Below are positions 2,442 to 53,340 of a DNA stretch of 64,000 nt, in pieces. The DNA comes from Escherichia coli (lineage in GTDB: Bacteria > Pseudomonadota > Gammaproteobacteria > Enterobacterales > Enterobacteriaceae). Position 1 is the first letter of the stretch. Every line of letters starts with the position of its first letter. Under the pieces are notes generated by a model. It did not search any database, was not told the origin of the DNA, and saw nothing but the letters and a program-made list of their open reading frames with translations. The translations under genes and the position numbers were made by a program. Location of the stretch: the NCBI RefSeq assembly GCF_051903065.1, contig NZ_CP178438.1, one strand, 5' to 3'.

Positions 2442-2936
2442 TTAATTTGCGATTAACTGTTCGTTTATTTTGTCGATAATATTGATTGAGGGATCTGACG
2501 CTACGACGCGTAAATCCAGTATGACGCCAAGATTATTTAACTCATGAAATGCGTTAATATCATCATCATCTAATGAAACCGCTTTGGTTAACTGTTTTTT
2601 ACCGGGCCGCCAGGCCATGCCGCCAATATTTAGGGTGCCTATTTTTACCCCCTGGCGAACCATCGCTAAGGCATCCTGTGGGCGAGTGAAAAGATAAAAA
2701 ACGGTTTCGTCCTGATATTGCGGGTTGTGATAAACCGCGACGGCTTTTTCAATATTGACCACGTTAACCTTCATTCCCGGTGGCGCAGCCTGACGCAATA
2801 ATGTCCGGCGAACTTCATCGTTATAAACTTCGTCATTGCAGATAATAATGCGCTGGGCGTTAGCCACTTTCGACCAGACGGTAGTGACCTGACCGTGGAT
2901 CAGGCGGTCATCAATGCGGGCGAGCGTAATGTTCAT
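2442..2936 (-). CDS. sorB: PTS mannose/sorbose-family EIIB component
   Basis: 164-aa ORF with N-terminal MNITLARIDDRLIHGQVTT (phospho-histidine motif of mannose-family EIIB). Confidence 0.8.
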   Translation of the reverse strand: MNITLARIDDRLIHGQVTTVWSKVANAQRIIICNDEVYNDEVRRTLLRQAAPPGMKVNVVNIEKAVAVYHNPQYQDETVFYLFTRPQDALAMVRQGVKIGTLNIGGMAWRPGKKQLTKAVSLDDDDINAFHELNNLGVILDLRVVASDPSINIIDKINEQLIAN

Positions 2937-3343
2937 CAGAAATCCTCCTCTGTCGTTGCCAGTTGTTTCCAGACAACGCAGGTTTGCTTTGCGATTTGCG
3001 TCAGGTGTTCACACAGTTCATCAACATTCATGCTGTCCTGGTTATCAACCAGTTCGAGCGCCAGCGGCAGAGAAAGTCCGCTGATTACCCGCAGACGAGG
3101 ATTGCGCATCGCAAGCATCGCTGCCGCATTCCACGGGCTGCCGCACTGTAAATCCACGGCAATCAGCCACTCATCTTGATTGTGAATGCTTACTAACTTT
3201 TCCAGCTTTGCTACGATGTCTCCGGCGTTCTCGCCGGGCACAAATTCAACGGCTTCAACATTGGCGTTGCCGTAAACCATCTGAACCGATTCCAGCATGG
3301 CGCAAGCTAATTTGCCGTGGGCACAAAAAATGGCGTTGACCAT
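2936..3343 (-). CDS. sorF: PTS mannose/sorbose-family EIIA component
   Basis: 135-aa ORF MVNAIFCAHGKLA...; start overlaps the stop of the EIIB gene. Confidence 0.75.
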   Translation of the reverse strand: MVNAIFCAHGKLACAMLESVQMVYGNANVEAVEFVPGENAGDIVAKLEKLVSIHNQDEWLIAVDLQCGSPWNAAAMLAMRNPRLRVISGLSLPLALELVDNQDSMNVDELCEHLTQIAKQTCVVWKQLATTEEDF

Positions 3344-3352
3344 AAAGCCTCC

Positions 3353-45968: not shown

Positions 45969-46459
45969 TCATGAGTCTTTTGAATGAAGTTCAGAAATTC
46001 ATTGAAGCCCATCCGGGGTGTACTTCCGGAGACATTGCGGATGCTTTTGCAGGTTACTCACGGCAGCGCGTTCTGCAGTCAGCAAGCAAGTTACGTCAGA
46101 GTGGGCGTGTGGCTCACCGTTGTGAAGGAGATACACGCAGACATTTCCCACGCCTGACTGAGAGAGCGCAGGAGCCGGAACCACAACCAGTTCGTGAAAC
46201 CAGACCTGTGCGCAATTTCTATGTCGGCACTAACGATCCCCGGGTGATTTTGTGCCTGACCCGCCAGGCGGAAGAACTGGAGTCCAGGGGCCTATACCGT
46301 CGTGCTGCAACGGTGTGGATGGCGGCATTCCGTGAAAGCCACTCCCAGCCAGAACGAAACAATTTTCTGGTGCGTCGTGAGCAGTGTTTACGGAAAAGCA
46401 GCAAGCGCGCTGTATCGGGTGATGAGTGGTATCTGTCAGGGAATTACGTGGGGGCTTAA
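45965..46459 (+). CDS. PerC-like transcriptional activator homolog
   Basis: 164-aa ORF; segment LESRGLYRRAATVWMAAF resembles the PerC/Pch core from memory. Confidence 0.35.
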   Translation: MIMSLLNEVQKFIEAHPGCTSGDIADAFAGYSRQRVLQSASKLRQSGRVAHRCEGDTRRHFPRLTERAQEPEPQPVRETRPVRNFYVGTNDPRVILCLTRQAEELESRGLYRRAATVWMAAFRESHSQPERNNFLVRREQCLRKSSKRAVSGDEWYLSGNYVGA

Positions 46460-47112
46460 TGAGTAATAAATATTGCCAGGAGCTGGTGGAACTGCGGAAC
46501 AAACCAGCCCATGAACTGAAGGAAGTGGGTGATCAGTGGCGCACGCCGGACAACATTTTCTGGGGAATTAACACCCTGTTTGGCCCGTTTGTTCTGGATC
46601 TGTTCACTGACGGTGATAACGCCAAATGTGCCGCGTATTACACGGCGGAAGACAACGCGCTGGCGCATGACTGGTCAGAACGCCTTGCGGAGCTTAAAGG
46701 TGCTGCCTTTGGTAATCCTCCATACAGCCGCGCCAGTCAGCATGAGGGGCAATACATCACCGGCATGCGTTACATCATGAAACATGCCAGTGCCATGCGT
46801 GATAAGGGCGGGCGCTATGTTTTCCTGATCAAAGCTGCCACCAGCGAAGTGTGGTGGCCGGAAGATGCAGATCATATTGCTTTTATTCGCGGGCGTATTG
46901 GTTTTGAACTGCCTGTCTGGTTTATCCCGAAAGACGAGAAGCAGGTACCGACAGGAGCTTTTTTCGCTGGTGCTATTGCTGTTTTTGACAAGACCTGGAA
47001 GGGACCGGCAATCAGCTACATCGGGCGCGATGAACTTGAGGCATGTGGTGAGGCGTTTCTGGCGCAGGTTCGCCAGCAGGCGGAAAAACTGGTCAGGGAG
47101 ATGGCGGCATGA
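46459..47112 (+). CDS. Phage DNA N6-adenine methyltransferase (Dam-like)
   Basis: ORF 46426..47112; start at MSNKYCQ (GGGGG RBS); catalytic NPPY motif (FGNPPYSRA). Confidence 0.7.
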   Translation: MSNKYCQELVELRNKPAHELKEVGDQWRTPDNIFWGINTLFGPFVLDLFTDGDNAKCAAYYTAEDNALAHDWSERLAELKGAAFGNPPYSRASQHEGQYITGMRYIMKHASAMRDKGGRYVFLIKAATSEVWWPEDADHIAFIRGRIGFELPVWFIPKDEKQVPTGAFFAGAIAVFDKTWKGPAISYIGRDELEACGEAFLAQVRQQAEKLVREMAA

Positions 47113-48651: not shown

Positions 48652-49647
48652 GTGACCGTGAGAGCACTACTGACTCCTGAAATTGCCCCGCGTATGGGGA
48701 TCGTATTGTTCAGGCCAGGTTCAGAGCTGATGCCCCTGTTTATGCAGGGGCGTGTCCTGTTGGAGCCTGAGCCGGAACGTTATTCATCTTTTGCCAGTGG
48801 TGCCGTTCCGGCGGTATCACAACCGCTGGCGGATGATCCTGCCGTTCGGGGCGTGTTCCGCAATGAGGCAGTGATCCGTCGTGCTGGTGGCGTGGAATGT
48901 CTTGAAAGCTGGTTACTTCGTGAAAAGGGCTGTCAGTGGCCTCATTCCGACTGGCACAGCGAGAACATGACCACAATGCGGCACGCGCCGGGCGCAATCC
49001 GTCTGTGCTGGCACTGCGATAACCAGCTGCGCGATCAGTTCACGGAACGGCTGGAATCAATGGCAACGGATAACTGTGCCCGCTGGGTATTGTCTGTTGT
49101 GCGTCGGGATCTCGGTTTTGATGATAGTCACGTTGTGACAATGCCGGAACTGTGCTGGTGGCTGGTTCGTAATGACCTGGCGGATGCCTTACCGGAAAGT
49201 GCAGCCCGTAAGGCACTGAGATTACCGAAGCCTGTTGTGCCGTCTGTCACCCGGGAAAGTGACCTTGTGCCTTCGGTTCCTGCCACCAGCATCATCCAGG
49301 ATAAGGCGAAAAAGGTGCTGGCGCTGAAAGTGGATCCGGAGTCGCCGGAGTCTTTTATGTTACGCCCAAAACGTCGCCGCTGGGTTAATGAAAAGTACAC
49401 GCGCTGGGTTAAGACACAGCCGTGTGCATGTTGTGGAAAGCCCGCTGATGATCCCCACCACCTGATAGGCCACGGTCAGGGGGGAATGGGTACAAAAGCG
49501 CATGACCTCTTTGTGTTGCCTTTGTGCAGAAAGCATCACGACGAGCTGCATGCGGATACCGTGGCATTTGAAGAGAAGTATGGCTCCCAGTTGGAGCTGA
49601 TATTTCGTTTTATCGATCGTGCGCTGGCAATAGGCGTACTGGCGTAA
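48652..49647 (+). CDS. DUF968-family phage protein
   Basis: 331-aa ORF with C-terminal CACCGKPADDPHHLIGHGQGGMGTKAHD...PLCRKHHDELH; start uncertain. Confidence 0.55.
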   Translation: MTVRALLTPEIAPRMGIVLFRPGSELMPLFMQGRVLLEPEPERYSSFASGAVPAVSQPLADDPAVRGVFRNEAVIRRAGGVECLESWLLREKGCQWPHSDWHSENMTTMRHAPGAIRLCWHCDNQLRDQFTERLESMATDNCARWVLSVVRRDLGFDDSHVVTMPELCWWLVRNDLADALPESAARKALRLPKPVVPSVTRESDLVPSVPATSIIQDKAKKVLALKVDPESPESFMLRPKRRRWVNEKYTRWVKTQPCACCGKPADDPHHLIGHGQGGMGTKAHDLFVLPLCRKHHDELHADTVAFEEKYGSQLELIFRFIDRALAIGVLA

Positions 49648-49660
49648 GTGGAGAACGAGC

Positions 49661-50413
49661 ATGAACCTTGAAGCCTTACCAAAATATTACTCCCCAAAAT
49701 CTCCCAAATTGAGCGATGAGGCACCGGCGACAGGCTCGAGTGGTTTAACGATTACGGATGTGATGGCTGCGCAGGGGATGGTGCAGTCGAAAGCACCGCT
49801 TGGGTTTGCCTTATTTCTGGCAAAAGTTGGTGTTCAGGATCCTCAGTTTGCGATTGAAGGTCTGCTCAATTACGCGATGGCACTGGATAACCCGACATTG
49901 AACAAATTGAGTGAAGAAACCCGGTTACAGATCATCCCTTACCTTGTGAATTTTGCCTTTGCTGATTATTCCAGGTCTGCTGCAAGTAAGGCTCGCTGTG
50001 AGCATTGTGCTGGTACTGGATTTCATAATGTATTGCGCGAAGTGGTGAAACACTCCAGAAGCGGGGAATCTGTTATCAAGGAAGAGTGGGTGAAGGAACT
50101 ATGTCAGCATTGTTATGGTAAGGGAGAGGTCAGCACAGCGTGTAGAGGGTGTAAGGGGAAAGGTATTGTACTGGATGAAAAAAGAACCCGGCTTCATGGT
50201 GCGCCTGTTTATAAGGTTTGTGGGCGTTGCAATGGAAACCGGTTTAGCCGTTTACCAACCACACTGGCGCGGCATCATGTCCAGAAGCTGGTACCGGATC
50301 TGACGGATTATCAGTGGTACAAAGGATATGCAGATGTCATTGATAAACTGGTTACAAAGTGCTGGCAGGAAGAAGCATATGCAGAGACACAATTGAGAAA
50401 AGTGACAAGATAA
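49661..50413 (+). CDS. Late-gene antiterminator Q-like protein
   Basis: 250-aa ORF with zinc-binding cysteine pairs (CEHCAGTG, CQHCYGKG, CRGCKGKG, CGRCNG); immediately upstream of candidate late promoter and terminator. Confidence 0.65.
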   Translation: MNLEALPKYYSPKSPKLSDEAPATGSSGLTITDVMAAQGMVQSKAPLGFALFLAKVGVQDPQFAIEGLLNYAMALDNPTLNKLSEETRLQIIPYLVNFAFADYSRSAASKARCEHCAGTGFHNVLREVVKHSRSGESVIKEEWVKELCQHCYGKGEVSTACRGCKGKGIVLDEKRTRLHGAPVYKVCGRCNGNRFSRLPTTLARHHVQKLVPDLTDYQWYKGYADVIDKLVTKCWQEEAYAETQLRKVTR

Positions 50414-50446
50414 ATGATTTTCGCCGAAGATGGCGACATGATGCTT

Positions 50447-50476
50447 GCATTTTTCAAAAAATATGGATAAGATTTT
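50447..50476 (+). promoter_or_regulatory. Candidate late promoter (PR'-like)
   Basis: TTGCAT, 17-bp spacer, TAAGAT. Confidence 0.45.
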
Positions 50477-50520
50477 CCCAACGATGGGCTTTGTATGTCT
50501 ACCGTTGATAAGATTTAAGA

Positions 50521-50550
50521 ACCCGCCACTGAGCGGGTTTTTTGTACCTG
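50521..50550 (+). terminator. Rho-independent terminator (tR'-like)
   Basis: aacccgccactgagcgggttttttg. Confidence 0.7.
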
Positions 50551-50665
50551 TAAACTTGGTGCAGTACAGTAAACACGCTGGTGGTCGTGAATACTGACTT
50601 TTTATCTTGCTGGATTTTTAGACAAGAGTTATTGGTATGTCATGTTAACCAGAAGGGAAAAAGAC

Positions 50666-50869
50666 ATGCTAAAACAGCAAGATATGACAGAAACCGCCGC
50701 CGCAGTCCTTCATTTCTTACCTGCTGACAAGTGGGTAACGCCACGCATGATGACGAGAACTACCGGAGTAAGCGAAGCCCGGTGCCAGTTAATACTGACT
50801 CAGTTAGTTCTGGCGGGTCTGGCGAAGGATAACGGCGGGTACGGGAATAAATTCAGACGCTGCCAGTAA
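50666..50869 (+). CDS. Small hypothetical protein, possible winged-helix
   Basis: ORF 50642..50869; likely start at second ATG (MLKQQDMTETAAAV...). Confidence 0.35.
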   Translation: MLKQQDMTETAAAVLHFLPADKWVTPRMMTRTTGVSEARCQLILTQLVLAGLAKDNGGYGNKFRRCQ

Positions 50870-51019
50870 TGGCGGTTTCCTGCTGTGAAAATGGGCGGCT
50901 GGTGGGTGTTGGTAGCACCTGCCAGCCATTCGCTCATGCTTACTGGTCACAAGCGAACCACGGCCCACTGCTTTAGCGCAAAAGCAGAGTGAGCCTACCA
51001 GAGTTACGCTTACTGATCC

Positions 51020-52072
51020 ATGAAAAATACTGTAAAAATAAACAGTGTTGATTTAATCAACGCTGATTGCCTGCATTTTATTCAGTCCCTGCCTGATGAT
51101 TCCATTGACCTGATTGTTACCGATCCGCCTTACTTCAAGGTGAAACCTAACGGTTGGGACAATCAGTGGAAAGGGGACGAAGATTACCTTAAGTGGCTGG
51201 ACCACTGTCTGGCCCAGTTCTGGCGGGTGTTGAAACCTGCCGGAAGCCTTTACCTGTTCTGTGGGCATCGCCTGGCATCTGATATTGAGATCATGATGCG
51301 TGAACGTTTCAACGTGCTTAACCATATCATCTGGGCGAAGCCGTCCGGACGTTGGAATGGGTGTAATAAAGAAAGTCTGCGCGCATATTTTCCTGCCACA
51401 GAGCGCGTTCTGTTTGCTGAACATTACCAGGGGCCATATCGCGGCAAAAGTGACGGCTATGCGGCAAAAGAAAGGGAACTCAAACAGCACATAATGGCAC
51501 CGCTGATATCGTATTTCAGGGATGCTCGTGCCGAACTGGGTATAACGGCAAAACAAATTGCCGAAGCCACAGGTAAGAAAAATATGGTTTCCCACTGGTT
51601 TGGTGCCAGTCAGTGGCAGTTGCCGAATGAGGCTGACTATCGGAAGTTACAGGCACTGTTTTCCCGTATAGCGGCAGAGAAGTTTCAGGAACAACAACTG
51701 GAACAACCACACCACCAGCTGGTGGCATCTTATGATTCACTGAATCGCAAATATTCTGAATTGCTGGATGAGTTTAAATCTCTCCGGCGCTATTTCTCCG
51801 TATCAGTCTCCGTGCCTTATACCGATGTCTGGACGCATAAGCCCGTTCAGTTCTACCCGGGTAAACATCCGTGCGAGAAACCGACGGATATGCTCCGGCA
51901 AATAATCAATGCCAGTAGTCGACCTGGTGATCTGGTTGCTGATTTCTTTATGGGATCCGGTTCCACAATAAAAGCAGCAATGGCGCTGGGGCGTCGGGCG
52001 TTAGGTGTTGAACTTGAGTCAGAGCGGTTTAATCAGACGGTGAAAGAGGTAAGTGAACTGGTGGGGAAATAA
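51020..52072 (+). CDS. Orphan DNA methyltransferase (N6/N4 class, DPPY motif)
   Basis: 350-aa ORF with DPPYF catalytic motif and C-terminal SAM-binding segment FFMGSGSTI. Confidence 0.75.
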   Translation: MKNTVKINSVDLINADCLHFIQSLPDDSIDLIVTDPPYFKVKPNGWDNQWKGDEDYLKWLDHCLAQFWRVLKPAGSLYLFCGHRLASDIEIMMRERFNVLNHIIWAKPSGRWNGCNKESLRAYFPATERVLFAEHYQGPYRGKSDGYAAKERELKQHIMAPLISYFRDARAELGITAKQIAEATGKKNMVSHWFGASQWQLPNEADYRKLQALFSRIAAEKFQEQQLEQPHHQLVASYDSLNRKYSELLDEFKSLRRYFSVSVSVPYTDVWTHKPVQFYPGKHPCEKPTDMLRQIINASSRPGDLVADFFMGSGSTIKAAMALGRRALGVELESERFNQTVKEVSELVGK

Positions 52073-52077
52073 TTCTG

Positions 52078-52102
52078 GTGGCCACGTTGCGTGGCCTTTT
52101 TA
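52078..52102 (+). terminator. Hairpin terminator after methyltransferase gene
   Basis: ggccacgttgcgtggcc followed by TTTTTATTT. Confidence 0.55.
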
Positions 52103-52148
52103 TTTCCAACACAGCACCCGCAAATATCGCGAGGTGAGAGATGACGAA

Positions 52149-52484
52149 ATGCCTCATAACCCAAATACCTGGCCGGACTGGCTGGAGTTGTTTCAGAGCT
52201 GGTGGCGTGGAGACACACCGCTGGGTGCAGTGATTATGTCGATCGTTATGGCTGGTTTGCGCATCGCCTATTTTGGCGGTGGTGGTGGCTGGAAGCGAAA
52301 AACGCTCGAGATTTTGCTCTGTGGCGCTCTGACGCTGACCTTTGCATCCGCTCTTGAATATGTCGGATGGCCTAAATCGCTTTCTGTTGCCATTGGTGGT
52401 GGCGTGGGGCTGATCGGTGTCGATGCTATTCGTGGGGCTGCAATGCGAGTAATCGGTAACAAATTTGGTAGCTCGAAGGAGTAA
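52149..52484 (+). CDS. Putative holin
   Basis: ORF 52053..52484; start at MPHNPNTWPDW; hydrophobic segments; directly upstream of endolysin. Confidence 0.5.
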   Translation: MPHNPNTWPDWLELFQSWWRGDTPLGAVIMSIVMAGLRIAYFGGGGGWKRKTLEILLCGALTLTFASALEYVGWPKSLSVAIGGGVGLIGVDAIRGAAMRVIGNKFGSSKE

Positions 52485-52487
52485 TTT

Positions 52488-52964
52488 ATGCAGGCACTAA
52501 ATTCCCAGCGTAAAGCTTTCCTGGATATGGTGGCATGGTCAGAAGGAACGGATAACGGGCGACAACCGACACGTAACCACGGTTATGATGTTATTGTTGG
52601 TGGCGAACTGTTCACTGATTACTCCGATCACCCTCGCAAACTTGTCACGCTAAACCCAAAACTCAAATCAACAGCCGCCGGACGTTACCAGCTTCTTTCC
52701 CGTTGGTGGGATGCCTATCGTAAGCAGCTTGGCCTGAAAGACTTCTCTCCGAAAAGCCAGGACGCTGTGGCATTGCAGCAGATTAAGGAGCGTGGCGCTT
52801 TACCGATGATTGATCGCGGTGATATCCGTCAGGCTATCGATCGTTGCAGCAATATCTGGGCGTCGTTACCTGGTGCAGGTTATGGTCAGTATGAACATAA
52901 AATCAGTGATCTGATTTCCCGGTTTAAAGAGGCTGGTGGGGTGGTAAATGAAGTTGAGCTATAA
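52488..52964 (+). CDS. R: Endolysin, lambda R-type lytic transglycosylase
   Basis: 158-aa ORF ...QRKAFLDMVAWSEGTDNGRQPTRNHGYDVIVGGELFTDYSDHPRKLV... closely resembles lambda R from memory. Confidence 0.9.
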   Translation: MQALNSQRKAFLDMVAWSEGTDNGRQPTRNHGYDVIVGGELFTDYSDHPRKLVTLNPKLKSTAAGRYQLLSRWWDAYRKQLGLKDFSPKSQDAVALQQIKERGALPMIDRGDIRQAIDRCSNIWASLPGAGYGQYEHKISDLISRFKEAGGVVNEVEL

Positions 52965-53340
52965 GCTGGTTATCGCTGCATTCTTCTTTACTGTCATCGG
53001 TTCTTTCATCTGGTCTGCCAACCACTACTACAGCAAATATCAGCACGAAAAGAAACGTGCTGATGAGGCTGTACAAAATGCCAAATCGGCAACTGTCATT
53101 ACCAATAACGTCCTGCAATCACTGCAAATCGTCAATACAGTTCTGGAGGCTAACCAGCATGCAAAACAGCAGATCACACTGGAGTCACAGAGAACCCAGG
53201 AAGATATCAAAGTGGCTGTTGCGGATGATGATTGTGCTTCACGTCCTGTGCCTGCTGCCGCTGCTGACCGGTTGCGGAAGTACGCGAACAGTTTACGTAC
53301 CGATTCCGGCGGTACCGTTGCCAGCAAGCCTGACTACTGA
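52948..53340 (+). CDS. i-spanin (Rz-like)
   Basis: 130-aa ORF with N-terminal TM segment and coiled-coil-like body; after endolysin. Confidence 0.65.
   Translation: MKLSYKLVIAAFFFTVIGSFIWSANHYYSKYQHEKKRADEAVQNAKSATVITNNVLQSLQIVNTVLEANQHAKQQITLESQRTQEDIKVAVADDDCASRPVPAAAADRLRKYANSLRTDSGGTVASKPDY

Follow-up and report, generated by a model that had tools for sequence, protein, structure and literature searches.

The window analysed here is a 64,000-nucleotide stretch of Escherichia coli DNA (contig NZ_CP178438.1), and all positions are counted from its first nucleotide. The region running from its Q antiterminator gene into its lysis genes contains the following features.

49661-50413, plus strand: Q antiterminator gene of the lambda-Q family, 250 amino acids
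50445-50473, plus strand: predicted late promoter pR′, with the -35 hexamer TTGCAT (50445-50450), the 17-nt spacer TTTTCAAAAAATATGGA and the -10 hexamer TAAGAT (50468-50473)
50480-50488, plus strand: predicted transcription start (A at 50480) and candidate σ70-dependent pause element, AACGAT followed by GGG (AACGATGGG)
50507-50516, plus strand: second exact copy of GATAAGATTT, from a repeat search; the first copy is at 50466-50475
50517-50546, plus strand: intrinsic terminator tR′, with stem arms 50517-50526 and 50533-50542, loop CACTGA and a U6 tract
50547-50665, plus strand: conserved leader of the small open reading frame (ORF), with a Chi site at 50577-50584 and a possible hairpin
50666-50869, plus strand: small late gene, 67 amino acids, from an ATG at 50666 to a TAA at 50869; predicted stand-alone winged-helix protein
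50861-51019, plus strand: structured RNA candidate in the methylase 5′ UTR, conserved and with covariation
51020-52072, plus strand: DNA methyltransferase, 350 amino acids (N6_N4_Mtase; PF01555 at 1.6e-42, phrog_67)
52080-52105, plus strand: second intrinsic terminator, GGCCACG-TTG-CGTGGCC and then a T run, -12.5 kcal/mol
52149-52484, plus strand: holin (Pfam PF05106)
52488-52964, plus strand: endolysin (ORF; SfV and 720R4 annotation)
52948-53340, plus strand: Rz (ORF; SfV and 720R4 annotation)

The holin, endolysin, Rz and terminase genes are co-directional and lie downstream of the cassette. The methylase gene comes second in the cassette, with no restriction gene next to it, and its relatives are annotated as DNA methylases. 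The second terminator, between methylase and holin, was the top match of our terminator scan and is annotated in the SfV and Ayreon phage records. As a separate observation, Chi sites are approximately ten-fold enriched in the window, with a strong strand-biased excess that may protect phage DNA from RecBCD.

The cassette is an ordinary one, because it occurs in 1128 of 5426 complete E. coli genomes (~21%) and is, across 50380-51030, 94-99% identical in DNA sequence to phages SfV and vB_EcoM-720R4. SfV, vB_EcoM-720R4, Ayreon and mEp460 have the same gene order as the window, with the small ORF corresponding to SfV orf47 and the methylase to orf48; the SfV allele of the small ORF differs from that of the window (51% amino acid identity). 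The promoter and pause element are unannotated in all four records, and the terminator at tR′ is annotated in those of SfV and Ayreon. In Ayreon, mEp460 and Stx2c phages, a 677-bp lipoprotein moron is inserted at this terminator, which is duplicated on both sides of the insertion.

The stop codon of the Q gene, at 50413, places a PF03589 gene (2.1e-53, above the cut-off; phrog_127 at 1e-107) immediately upstream of the unit that begins with the predicted promoter at 50445. Residues 1-120 and 160-250 of the Q protein align to chain Q of PDB entry 7ubm (E=2.6e-38), and the alignment takes in the N-terminal residues from which the lambda-Q torus is built. However, lambda Q has 207 amino acids and a single zinc ribbon, whereas the Q protein of the window has 250 and four CxxCxGxG motifs; its approximately 40 extra residues sit where lambda Q has its zinc-ribbon arm. 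The promoter spacer TTTTCAAAAAATATGGA, the presumed Q-binding element, is nearly invariant among relatives and equals the lambda spacer at 11 of 17 positions in a hand comparison. Because of the extra residues and this limited spacer match, the DNA contacts of Q may differ from those of lambda Q. A literature search on the function of quuQ or ydfT, the K-12 counterpart, gave nothing relevant.

An earlier note on this DNA, made from the sequence alone, had proposed a TTGCAT-17-TAAGAT promoter behind Q, and that sequence is present at 50445-50473. Its hexamers agree with the consensus at 7 of 12 positions, equally good sites have a density of about 7.8 per kb per strand in the window, and a consensus promoter scan of the window left the site off its list, below threshold. 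Taken alone, the hexamers are not above chance, and the case for a promoter therefore rests on homology and conservation. The homology is to lambda pR′. The window reads TTGCAT-17-TAAGAT-TTTCCC-AACGATGGGC and lambda reads TTGACT-17-TAAATT-TGACTC-AACGATGGGT, such that the two -35 elements differ (TTGCAT in the window, TTGACT in lambda) and AACGATGGG at 50480-50488, 6 nt past the -10, is identical in both sequence and spacing to positions +1 to +9 of lambda pR′. Judged by its sequence, AACGAT would supply the -10-like element in the initial transcribed region that defines a σ70-dependent pause. The conservation is found in 34 distinct variants (~90 loci), which keep the -35, the -10, AA(C/T)GAT (present in nearly all variants) and a terminator about 40 nt downstream. 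Across these relatives the -35/-10/pause block is conserved, whereas there is free variation in the linker that leads to the terminator and in the sequence past it. Moreover, one locus (L018) is a natural hybrid in which a promoter of the window type is joined to lambda 6S DNA exactly at AACGATGGG. We infer a start at 50480, with a pause near +16/+17 (50495-50496), by this comparison because no 5′-end mapping was found for the cassette: a search for published 5′-end or transcription start site data found none, and Cappable-seq supplements have no entry at the K-12 homologue in either coordinate system. The predicted start falls within the range 50480-50490 named in the earlier note.

That note had also placed a strong terminator at 50521-50550, 45 bp after the promoter; we locate it a few bases away, at 50517-50546, between the promoter and the late genes and beginning 44-47 bp past the -10 element. 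Terminator tR′ reads AAGAACCCGC / CACTGA / GCGGGTTTTT at 50517-50542, with a G+C core at 50522-50526 / 50533-50537 and a T6 run at 50538-50543. The folding energy of the hairpin is -13.5 kcal/mol, and the fold of the 71-nt RNA has z = -3.2. The terminator scan of the window did not list tR′; our guess is that, once the stem is extended (AAGAA with UUUUU), the tail no longer holds enough T residues for the rule of the scan. In an alignment of relatives, 94.8% of cells in the stem are paired, as against 23-56% for slid controls, a value that did not exceed shuffle controls; covariation is thin, given how closely related the sequences are. In Salmonella-type variants, tR′ is swapped for an independent hairpin, CCTCGC-TTCG-GCGGGG. 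Termination here would place the 3′ end at about 50545 and yield an RNA of about 66 nt (65-67 nt), in which an A/U-rich linker would join a 5′ hairpin to a terminator with a U-tail. A search of the plus strand at 50480-50546 returned no Rfam match at gathering score. A minus-strand match to STnc130 (50511-50647; 29.5 bits against a threshold of 55) was driven by the terminator hairpin and was treated as chance, as were weaker matches of the same class to Trp, Leu and isrK-like families. The ORF that spans promoter and terminator (50445-50597) has no family matches and is not a gene.

The Qin cryptic prophage of E. coli K-12 carries the same cassette downstream of ydfT (quuQ), with the same type of Q, promoter, pause element and terminator. 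Unlike the window, Qin is defective, its linker differs, its RNA is 1 nt longer, and ynfS, cspF and cspB lie downstream in place of the winged-helix gene and the methylase. Term-seq of K-12 recorded a dominant ‘orphan’ 3′ end at 1642356(-), in the homologous terminator (PMC7815308, supplementary file 1). Counted from the predicted start this end is at +67, 8 nt past the stem; it has three entries in a file that covers three growth conditions, belongs to a set of roughly 1000 dominant ends and has high read counts (PMC7815308). It shows that an RNA ends at this position; neither where that RNA starts nor whether the end arises by termination or by processing follows from it. No ncRNA is annotated at the K-12 site.

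We conclude that the region is very probably a Q-dependent late regulatory cassette of the lambda type. Like the window, with its predicted promoter and start, the lambda cassette has a PF03589 Q, a promoter just past Q with a 17-nt spacer, 6 nt from -10 to start, AACGATGGG and a terminator before the late genes. The proposal in the earlier note of a short 6S-like transcript with a terminator overridden by Q is thus supported in its layout by the Q family, AACGATGGG, the conserved terminator and the K-12 3′ end; the likeness to 6S does not extend to length, as the terminated RNA would be about 66 nt in the window and is 194 nt in lambda. In all described Q systems the promoter lies immediately downstream of Q, and lambda Q together with NusA forms a nozzle on the RNA exit channel that blocks terminator hairpins (PMC9388147). 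In the mechanism that we propose, host σ70 RNA polymerase would start at pR′ at about 50480, probably constitutively in a lysogen, as in lambda. AACGAT and GGG resemble a -10 element, so that σ70 would re-bind there and hold the polymerase near +16/+17. If Q is absent, the enzyme would leave the pause, terminate at 50517-50546 and free an RNA of about 66 nt. Once the prophage is induced, Q is predicted to bind the spacer DNA of the promoter and to load onto the paused polymerase, where, by analogy with lambda Q, a Q and NusA nozzle on the exit channel would stop hairpin formation. The Q-modified polymerase would then pass both tR′ and the terminator at 52080 and transcribe the winged-helix gene, as the first late gene, followed by the methylase, lysis, head and tail genes. 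The start site, the pause, the binding of Q to the spacer and the Q-dependent readthrough are each steps that we infer.

Unlike lambda, the window has a winged-helix gene, a methylase and a second terminator ahead of the lysis genes. The ORF from ATG to TAA at 50666-50869 that the earlier note had pointed out is a genuine gene that is conserved, and a GAAGGGA ribosome-binding site precedes it at 50652-50658. The note had called it unexpected, a description that does not hold: its homologues include SfV orf47, P27 L23 and cdtI orf55, and together with the methylase it travels behind lambda-type, 82-type and short Q genes. The protein matches phrog_331 (3e-26) and has 150 homologues with mosaic alleles, of which the middle part is hypervariable. 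The suggestion of a possible winged helix is borne out at the level of the predicted fold. The AlphaFold model (pLDDT 87.6, pTM 0.76) has H-H-H-E-E topology, with helices at residues 4-17, 26-33 and 37-49 and strands at 53-55 and 63-65, consistent with the three helices and β-hairpin wing of a winged helix-turn-helix. Foldseek matched the model to Zalpha (TM 0.84), to IclR and NsrR (0.75-0.77) and also to TrmBL2, with probability 1.00 and E-values of only about 5e-3. The predicted fold is the same ~65-residue fold as ADAR1 Zalpha and the N-terminal domains of TrmB, IclR, Rrf2 and MarR; the small protein differs in lacking an effector or dimerisation domain.

Sequence searches with the small protein gave less. 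No Pfam family reached threshold, the only match being MarR_2 (0.045-0.058; 14 bits against a cut-off of 27), NCBIfam returned nothing, and single-sequence and profile searches of the PDB gave nothing significant. Its relatives have sub-threshold matches to TrmB, MarR_2 and DprA_WH, those to TrmB in 20 of 27 relatives (best 2.5e-4, which seems weak to us for a model of a curated domain), and the Pfam TrmB N-terminal domain has no match in the protein of the window. We therefore do not adopt the name ‘TrmB family transcriptional regulator’ that some allele records carry: the TrmB threshold is not reached, the C-terminal sugar-binding effector domain is absent, and the winged helix fills all 67 residues. 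The small protein is most likely, at low confidence, an accessory or regulatory protein that binds DNA and is linked to the methylase, its usual downstream neighbour. In the leader of its gene, UGGUAUGUC (50631-50639) could pair with GACAUGCUA (50663-50671) in a candidate hairpin that encloses the start codon (z = -2.3), which is weakly supported because the only changes seen are compatible with G-U pairs and one-sided. Two long-range leader pairings, I3 and I4 (50595-50612 with 50653-50684), lack consistent covariation and were rejected. Neither the scan nor inspection by eye revealed a σ70 promoter in the interval from tR′ to the small ORF or in the spacer ahead of the methylase.

This 150-nt spacer encodes a conserved RNA of ~160 nt with the following predicted elements.

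50861-50876, plus strand: P0, hairpin
50892-50896 / 50963-50967, plus strand: P1, stem of a three-way junction
50897-50908 / 50916-50927, plus strand: P2, which holds a Chi site at 50898-50905
50929-50934 / 50952-50957, plus strand: P3, stem of the three-way junction
50968-50974 / 50981-50987, plus strand: P4, hairpin
50988-50994 / 51008-51014, plus strand: P5, hairpin, followed by GAUCC and the AUG

The spacer is 86-91% identical, as against 74-75% for the methylase and 64-68% for the small ORF, and covariation is seen across 49 distinct sequences. In 110 of 116 scorable loci the element sits immediately in front of the start of the methylase gene. In the window, 5 nt separate the end of the element from the methylase AUG, an AUG that lacks a Shine-Dalgarno sequence. 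A search of the plus strand at 50861-51019 returned no Rfam match. Two ORFs in the spacer (50869-50976 and 50885-50992) are not genes, as they lack family matches and 1-nt indels disrupt them in relatives. We set aside a pseudoknot in which UCAUG of the P3 loop would pair with CAUGA at the methylase start; its support is mixed, and it is absent from L128-type variants. The RNA element could serve to time phage DNA methylation, as a riboswitch-like element or as an operator of translation, in response for example to the methylase, the winged-helix protein or SAM/SAH. On this reading, which has a rather low probability, the late leader would be more than a promoter and a terminator: the RNA at 50861-51019 may represent an undescribed class of cis-regulatory RNA and, separately, the 66-nt RNA may act in trans as StxS does.

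A more specific role for the small protein would be that of a dedicated, C-protein-like controller of the methylase, which would bind DNA or the structured 5′ UTR RNA and so time methylase expression. The small ORF precedes the RNA element and the methylase in 103 of 116 scorable loci, behind several types of Q, and its modelled fold would be one that binds nucleic acids. However, the linkage is incomplete: seven loci have the methylase and the RNA element without the small ORF, and six loci have the small ORF without the methylase, as does an Stx2k phage. Moreover, there is no evident operator or promoter between the two genes, and a hypervariable, mosaic middle is unusual for a surface that binds a fixed operator. 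We regard a dedicated controller as a rather doubtful reading.

As an addition to the lambda-type switch, the ~66-nt pR′-tR′ RNA might also act in trans in lysogens, as an Hfq-binding sRNA like StxS. StxS, which regulates rpoS and stx1, is made in lysogens by termination at tR′ of transcription from a constitutive late promoter (PMC7547250). The predicted RNA has the usual sRNA layout, and the K-12 homologue stands among the dominant Term-seq 3′ ends, with high reads, in a cassette as widespread in complete E. coli genomes as described above. By contrast, StxS, from Stx1 and Stx2a phages, is cut from a 258-nt precursor and occurs with a 144-amino-acid Q, and its sequence is unrelated to that of the window RNA; homology to StxS was rejected, given this lack of similarity and the 250-amino-acid, lambda-type Q of the window. 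No Rfam family fits the RNA, no ncRNA is annotated at the K-12 site, no Hfq or target data were found, and conservation is lowest in the linker, where a seed region would most likely lie. A function in trans is improbable.

The lambda-type cassette has also to be set against the reading that there is no promoter at all, such that the early-right (Q) message simply ends at the hairpin and the K-12 short RNA is a processed or terminated tail of upstream transcription. The 7/12 hexamers at background frequency are compatible with this, as are the search for start site data, which found none, and the K-12 Term-seq entry, which records a 3′ end only. It leaves without explanation why AACGATGGG lies exactly 6 nt past a -10-like hexamer, as in lambda pR′, why the -35/-10/pause block is conserved while the flanking linker and post-terminator sequence are free to vary, and why a natural hybrid has lambda 6S joined at the start site; it also runs counter to the position of the promoter in the described Q systems (PMC9388147). 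We consider it very unlikely.

Least likely is a function for the second copy of the -10 region, which reads TGATAAGAT (50506-50514), an extended -10-like motif, and could act either as an extended -10 promoter with its start at about 50521 or as a second σ-dependent pause, near +45: the 10-nt copy, at about +28 to +37, is exact (shuffle probability about 0.01) and its TG lies one base before TAAGAT, the spacing of an extended -10, but related cassettes carry GTTAACGAAATC, GTTAAGAAAAAG, GGTAAATGTC and others at this position, the variation there does not track that of the true -10, and an RNA starting at about 50521 would still contain the whole terminator hairpin. A conserved pause site or promoter was ruled out here, and the copy is probably lineage-specific because it is not conserved in related cassettes.

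On the preferred reading, a lambda-type late switch, the subfamily of 250-amino-acid Q proteins, which includes K-12 Qin ydfT/quuQ and those of SfV, mEp460 and the Stx2c and Stx2k phages, would use the logic of lambda pR′, down to an identical start and pause element. The cassette predicts where late transcription begins and, in Stx2c and Stx2k phages, where toxin transcription begins as well. It would also explain the unassigned ‘orphan’ 3′ end in the K-12 Term-seq data. The switch itself is common and unsurprising; the new points are the structured RNA and the Chi excess. Both the covarying RNA, which is absent from Rfam and fixed ahead of a widespread phage DNA methyltransferase, and the Chi excess are of more potential value than the switch itself.

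The earlier note had described a TTGCAT-17-TAAGAT promoter behind Q, a strong terminator shortly after it and a small, possibly winged-helix ORF ahead of the methyltransferase and lysis genes. Reading the sequence of 49400-52400 located the promoter (TTGCAT at 50445-50450 and TAAGAT at 50468-50473, separated by 17 nt), which we call pR′. The terminator, tR′, is present as a AAGAACCCGC / CACTGA / GCGGGTTTTT hairpin at 50517-50542, and a run of six T spans 50538-50543. The features discussed here are as follows.

49661-50413, + strand: Q gene, 250 aa, lambda-Q-family antiterminator (Pfam PF03589, 2.1e-53; phrog_127)
50666 (ATG) to 50869 (TAA), + strand: small ORF, with ribosome-binding site GAAGGGA at 50652-50658
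50861-51019, + strand: structured RNA candidate (P0 hairpin, three-way junction P1-P3, hairpins P4 and P5)
50577-50584, 50898-50905, 51718-51725 and 52198-52205: examples of Chi sites

Taken alone, the pR′ hexamers are weak: 7 of 12 positions agree with the consensus, the window holds about 7.8 equally good pairs per kb on each strand, and a consensus promoter scan of the window did not list them. Lambda pR′ reads TTGACT-17 nt-TAAATT-TGACTC-AACGATGGGTT, and the window reads TTGCAT-17 nt-TAAGAT-TTTCCC-AACGATGGGCT; by hand comparison, 11 of the 17 spacer positions are identical. In lambda, AACGAT at +1 to +6 is the sigma70-dependent pause element and the Q loading site (PMC9388147). Because nine bases are identical to lambda at an equal distance from the −10 element, the predicted start falls at 50480, with the pause expected near 50495-50496. 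On homology, and not on consensus, we take the promoter call to be supported despite its weak hexamers. An exact 10-nt direct repeat, GATAAGATTT, lies at 50466-50475 and 50507-50516 (shuffle probability ~0.01), the second copy making an extended −10-like TGATAAGAT directly before the terminator; no conservation of this copy was seen in related cassettes.

The tR′ hairpin has a folding energy of −13.5 kcal/mol (ViennaRNA), and comparison with shuffles gives the 71-nt RNA a folding z-score of −3.2. A terminator scan of the window did not pick up tR′, perhaps because, once the stem is extended, the remaining tail has fewer T than the scan's rule requires. In a 24-sequence alignment, 94.8% of cells are paired, versus 23-56% in slid controls, with few true double changes because the sequences are closely related. 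The SfV and Ayreon records already list this hairpin as a terminator. A second, strong terminator was found at 52080-52096 by terminator scan and folding.

A mapped 3′ end comes from the Qin prophage (ydfT) of K-12, which carries the same cassette with a predicted start at 1642422(-). The curated Term-seq data of Adams et al. (eLife 2021, PMC7815308, supplementary file 1) place a 3′ end, classed as dominant and ‘orphan’, at 1642356(-), with a printed flank of ...AAAACCCGCTGATGAGCGGGTTTTGTGC; the coordinate has three entries, and the file as a whole covers three growth conditions. This end lies at +67 from the predicted Qin start and 8 nt past the stem, which is the position expected of an intrinsic terminator that ends a 67-nt RNA. 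We account for this ‘orphan’ as the tR′ terminus of the late-promoter RNA of Qin. There is no annotated ncRNA at NC_000913 1642356-1642422 (-), and the search for 5′-end datasets found none covering the Qin site, so the start position stays inferred.

Residues 1-120 and 160-250 of the window Q align with lambda Q in PDB 7ubm (2.6e-38), and its N-terminal segment matches well the part of lambda Q that builds the torus at the exit channel (PMC9388147). The arm through which lambda Q touches sigma region 4 and the Q-binding element is a single zinc ribbon (PMC9388147), whereas residues ~113-190 of the window Q hold four CxxCxGxG motifs and ~40 extra residues at that place. This DnaJ-like pattern suggests two zinc sites, and given the motifs and extra residues the DNA contacts may differ from those of lambda.

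Q family membership, the pause element, the terminator and gene order all agree with a lambda-type switch, and the lambda model is the best explanation of the cassette. As in lambda, pR′ would probably be constitutive; transcription would begin there, and sigma70 would make the polymerase pause at +16/17. In the lysogen, polymerase would stop at tR′ and yield a ~66-nt RNA. On induction, Q would bind the promoter spacer and load onto the paused complex, and the resulting termination-resistant complex would pass both tR′ and the second terminator into the lysis and morphogenesis genes. We assign the cassette to the lambda-type Q-dependent late switches, with Q binding and readthrough as predictions. 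StxS, a tR′-terminated regulatory RNA of Stx phages (PMC7547250), shows that by-product tR′ RNAs can gain function. The window RNA is not StxS, which accompanies a 144-aa Q, unlike the 250-aa Q here. Because its architecture matches StxS-type RNAs and it is abundant in K-12, it may also act in trans, though the probability is low.

The 156-bp cassette is common: of 5426 complete E. coli genomes, 1128 carry it. Phage vB_EcoM-720R4 is 99% identical over a 651-bp region and SfV 94% over the core 256 bp (50405-50660). Among 34 distinct versions extracted from ~90 loci, TTG(C/T)AT with the −10 element and a hairpin with U-tract ~40 nt past the start are kept in all, and the AA(C/T)GAT pause element in nearly all; the linker and everything beyond the terminator vary. 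Salmonella-type versions have another hairpin, CCTCGC-TTCG-GCGGGG. In L018 (a related locus, IMG/VR UViG_2565956633_000004), positions 2285-2400 follow the window-type promoter as far as AACGATGGG and then lambda 6S DNA, and from its sequence we regard this locus as the product of natural recombination at the start site that both share. Ayreon (2630-3347 of its locus), mEp460 and Stx2c and Stx2k phages carry at tR′ a 677-bp moron with a 141-aa lipoprotein-like ORF. The moron is inserted exactly there and the terminator hairpin is duplicated on both flanks, so that tR′ serves as a joint at which modules recombine.

The 64-kb window has 24 copies of Chi (GCTGGTGG), against 2.4 expected, a count reached in 0 of 100 shuffles; within 38.6-62.7 kb, the + strand carries 14 of 17 sites. 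Should cos be located immediately ahead of the terminase genes, we infer that + strand Chi would be active for RecBCD entering from the right end. Judged by eye from the ORF translations, there appear to be two DNA methyltransferase genes in the prophage, 46426-47112 in the nin-like region, which looks like a putative Dam-like enzyme, and the late gene 51020-52072 (PF01555).

The small ORF is real (phrog_331, 3e-26), with 150 homologues of 61-67 aa in Escherichia, Salmonella, Shigella, Klebsiella, Kosakonia and Pantoea. The earlier note had called it unexpected, which it is not, being SfV orf47, P27 L23 and cdtI orf55. The suggested winged helix is borne out by prediction: the AlphaFold model (pLDDT 87.6, helix-helix-helix-strand-strand) is matched by Foldseek to stand-alone or N-terminal winged-helix domains, namely Zalpha (TM 0.84), IclR, NsrR and TrmBL2. 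No Pfam or NCBIfam family reached threshold, and the name ‘TrmB family’ in some records rests on weak domain matches. Alleles are mosaic, with an invariant N-terminus (MLKQQDMTETA), an invariant RCQLILTQL motif and a variable middle; alleles with only ~50% identity in the middle still have almost the same leader and first 11 codons. A possible hairpin at 50631-50671 (+), UGGUAUGUC with GACAUGCUA, would enclose the start codon and hold the ribosome-binding site in its loop; sequence changes there retain pairing only through G-U. The upstream Q varies, from lambda-type in the window to 120-126 aa in cdtI, P27, ASU11 and 1720a-02 and 82-type (PF06323) in Kosakonia. The methylase follows the small ORF in 103 of 116 scorable loci, and in our reading the late genes start with the small ORF, whose product would be a putative nucleic-acid-binding accessory tied to the methylase.

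The 150-nt spacer between these genes keeps a constant length in distant relatives and outranks both in conservation, being 86-91% identical to Kosakonia and metagenome copies (methylase 74-75%, small ORF 64-68%); every ORF inside it is broken by one-base indels. RNAalifold and pair counts support helices P1-P5 in alignments of 42 (MAFFT) and 49 distinct (CM) sequences, and P0 is a variable hairpin over the small-ORF stop codon (alignment, partly by eye). One P3 pair is found as U-A, C-G and A-U, and P5 has two-sided changes in 5 of 7 pairs. The covariation score was reached by 0 of 500 shuffles, with slid controls far lower, and because of its G-U pairs the structure can form only from the + strand. 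The P2 5′ arm includes a Chi site. An Rfam 15 search returned no match. The element always ends 5 nt ahead of the methylase AUG, which is preceded by an invariant GAUC and no Shine-Dalgarno sequence, and it accompanies the methylase also in loci without the small ORF. From these features we take it to be a candidate cis-regulatory 5′ UTR RNA. The promoter-terminator finding is correct and, given near-identity to published phages and textbook logic, ordinary; the structured RNA ahead of the methylase is the item that deserves a separate look.
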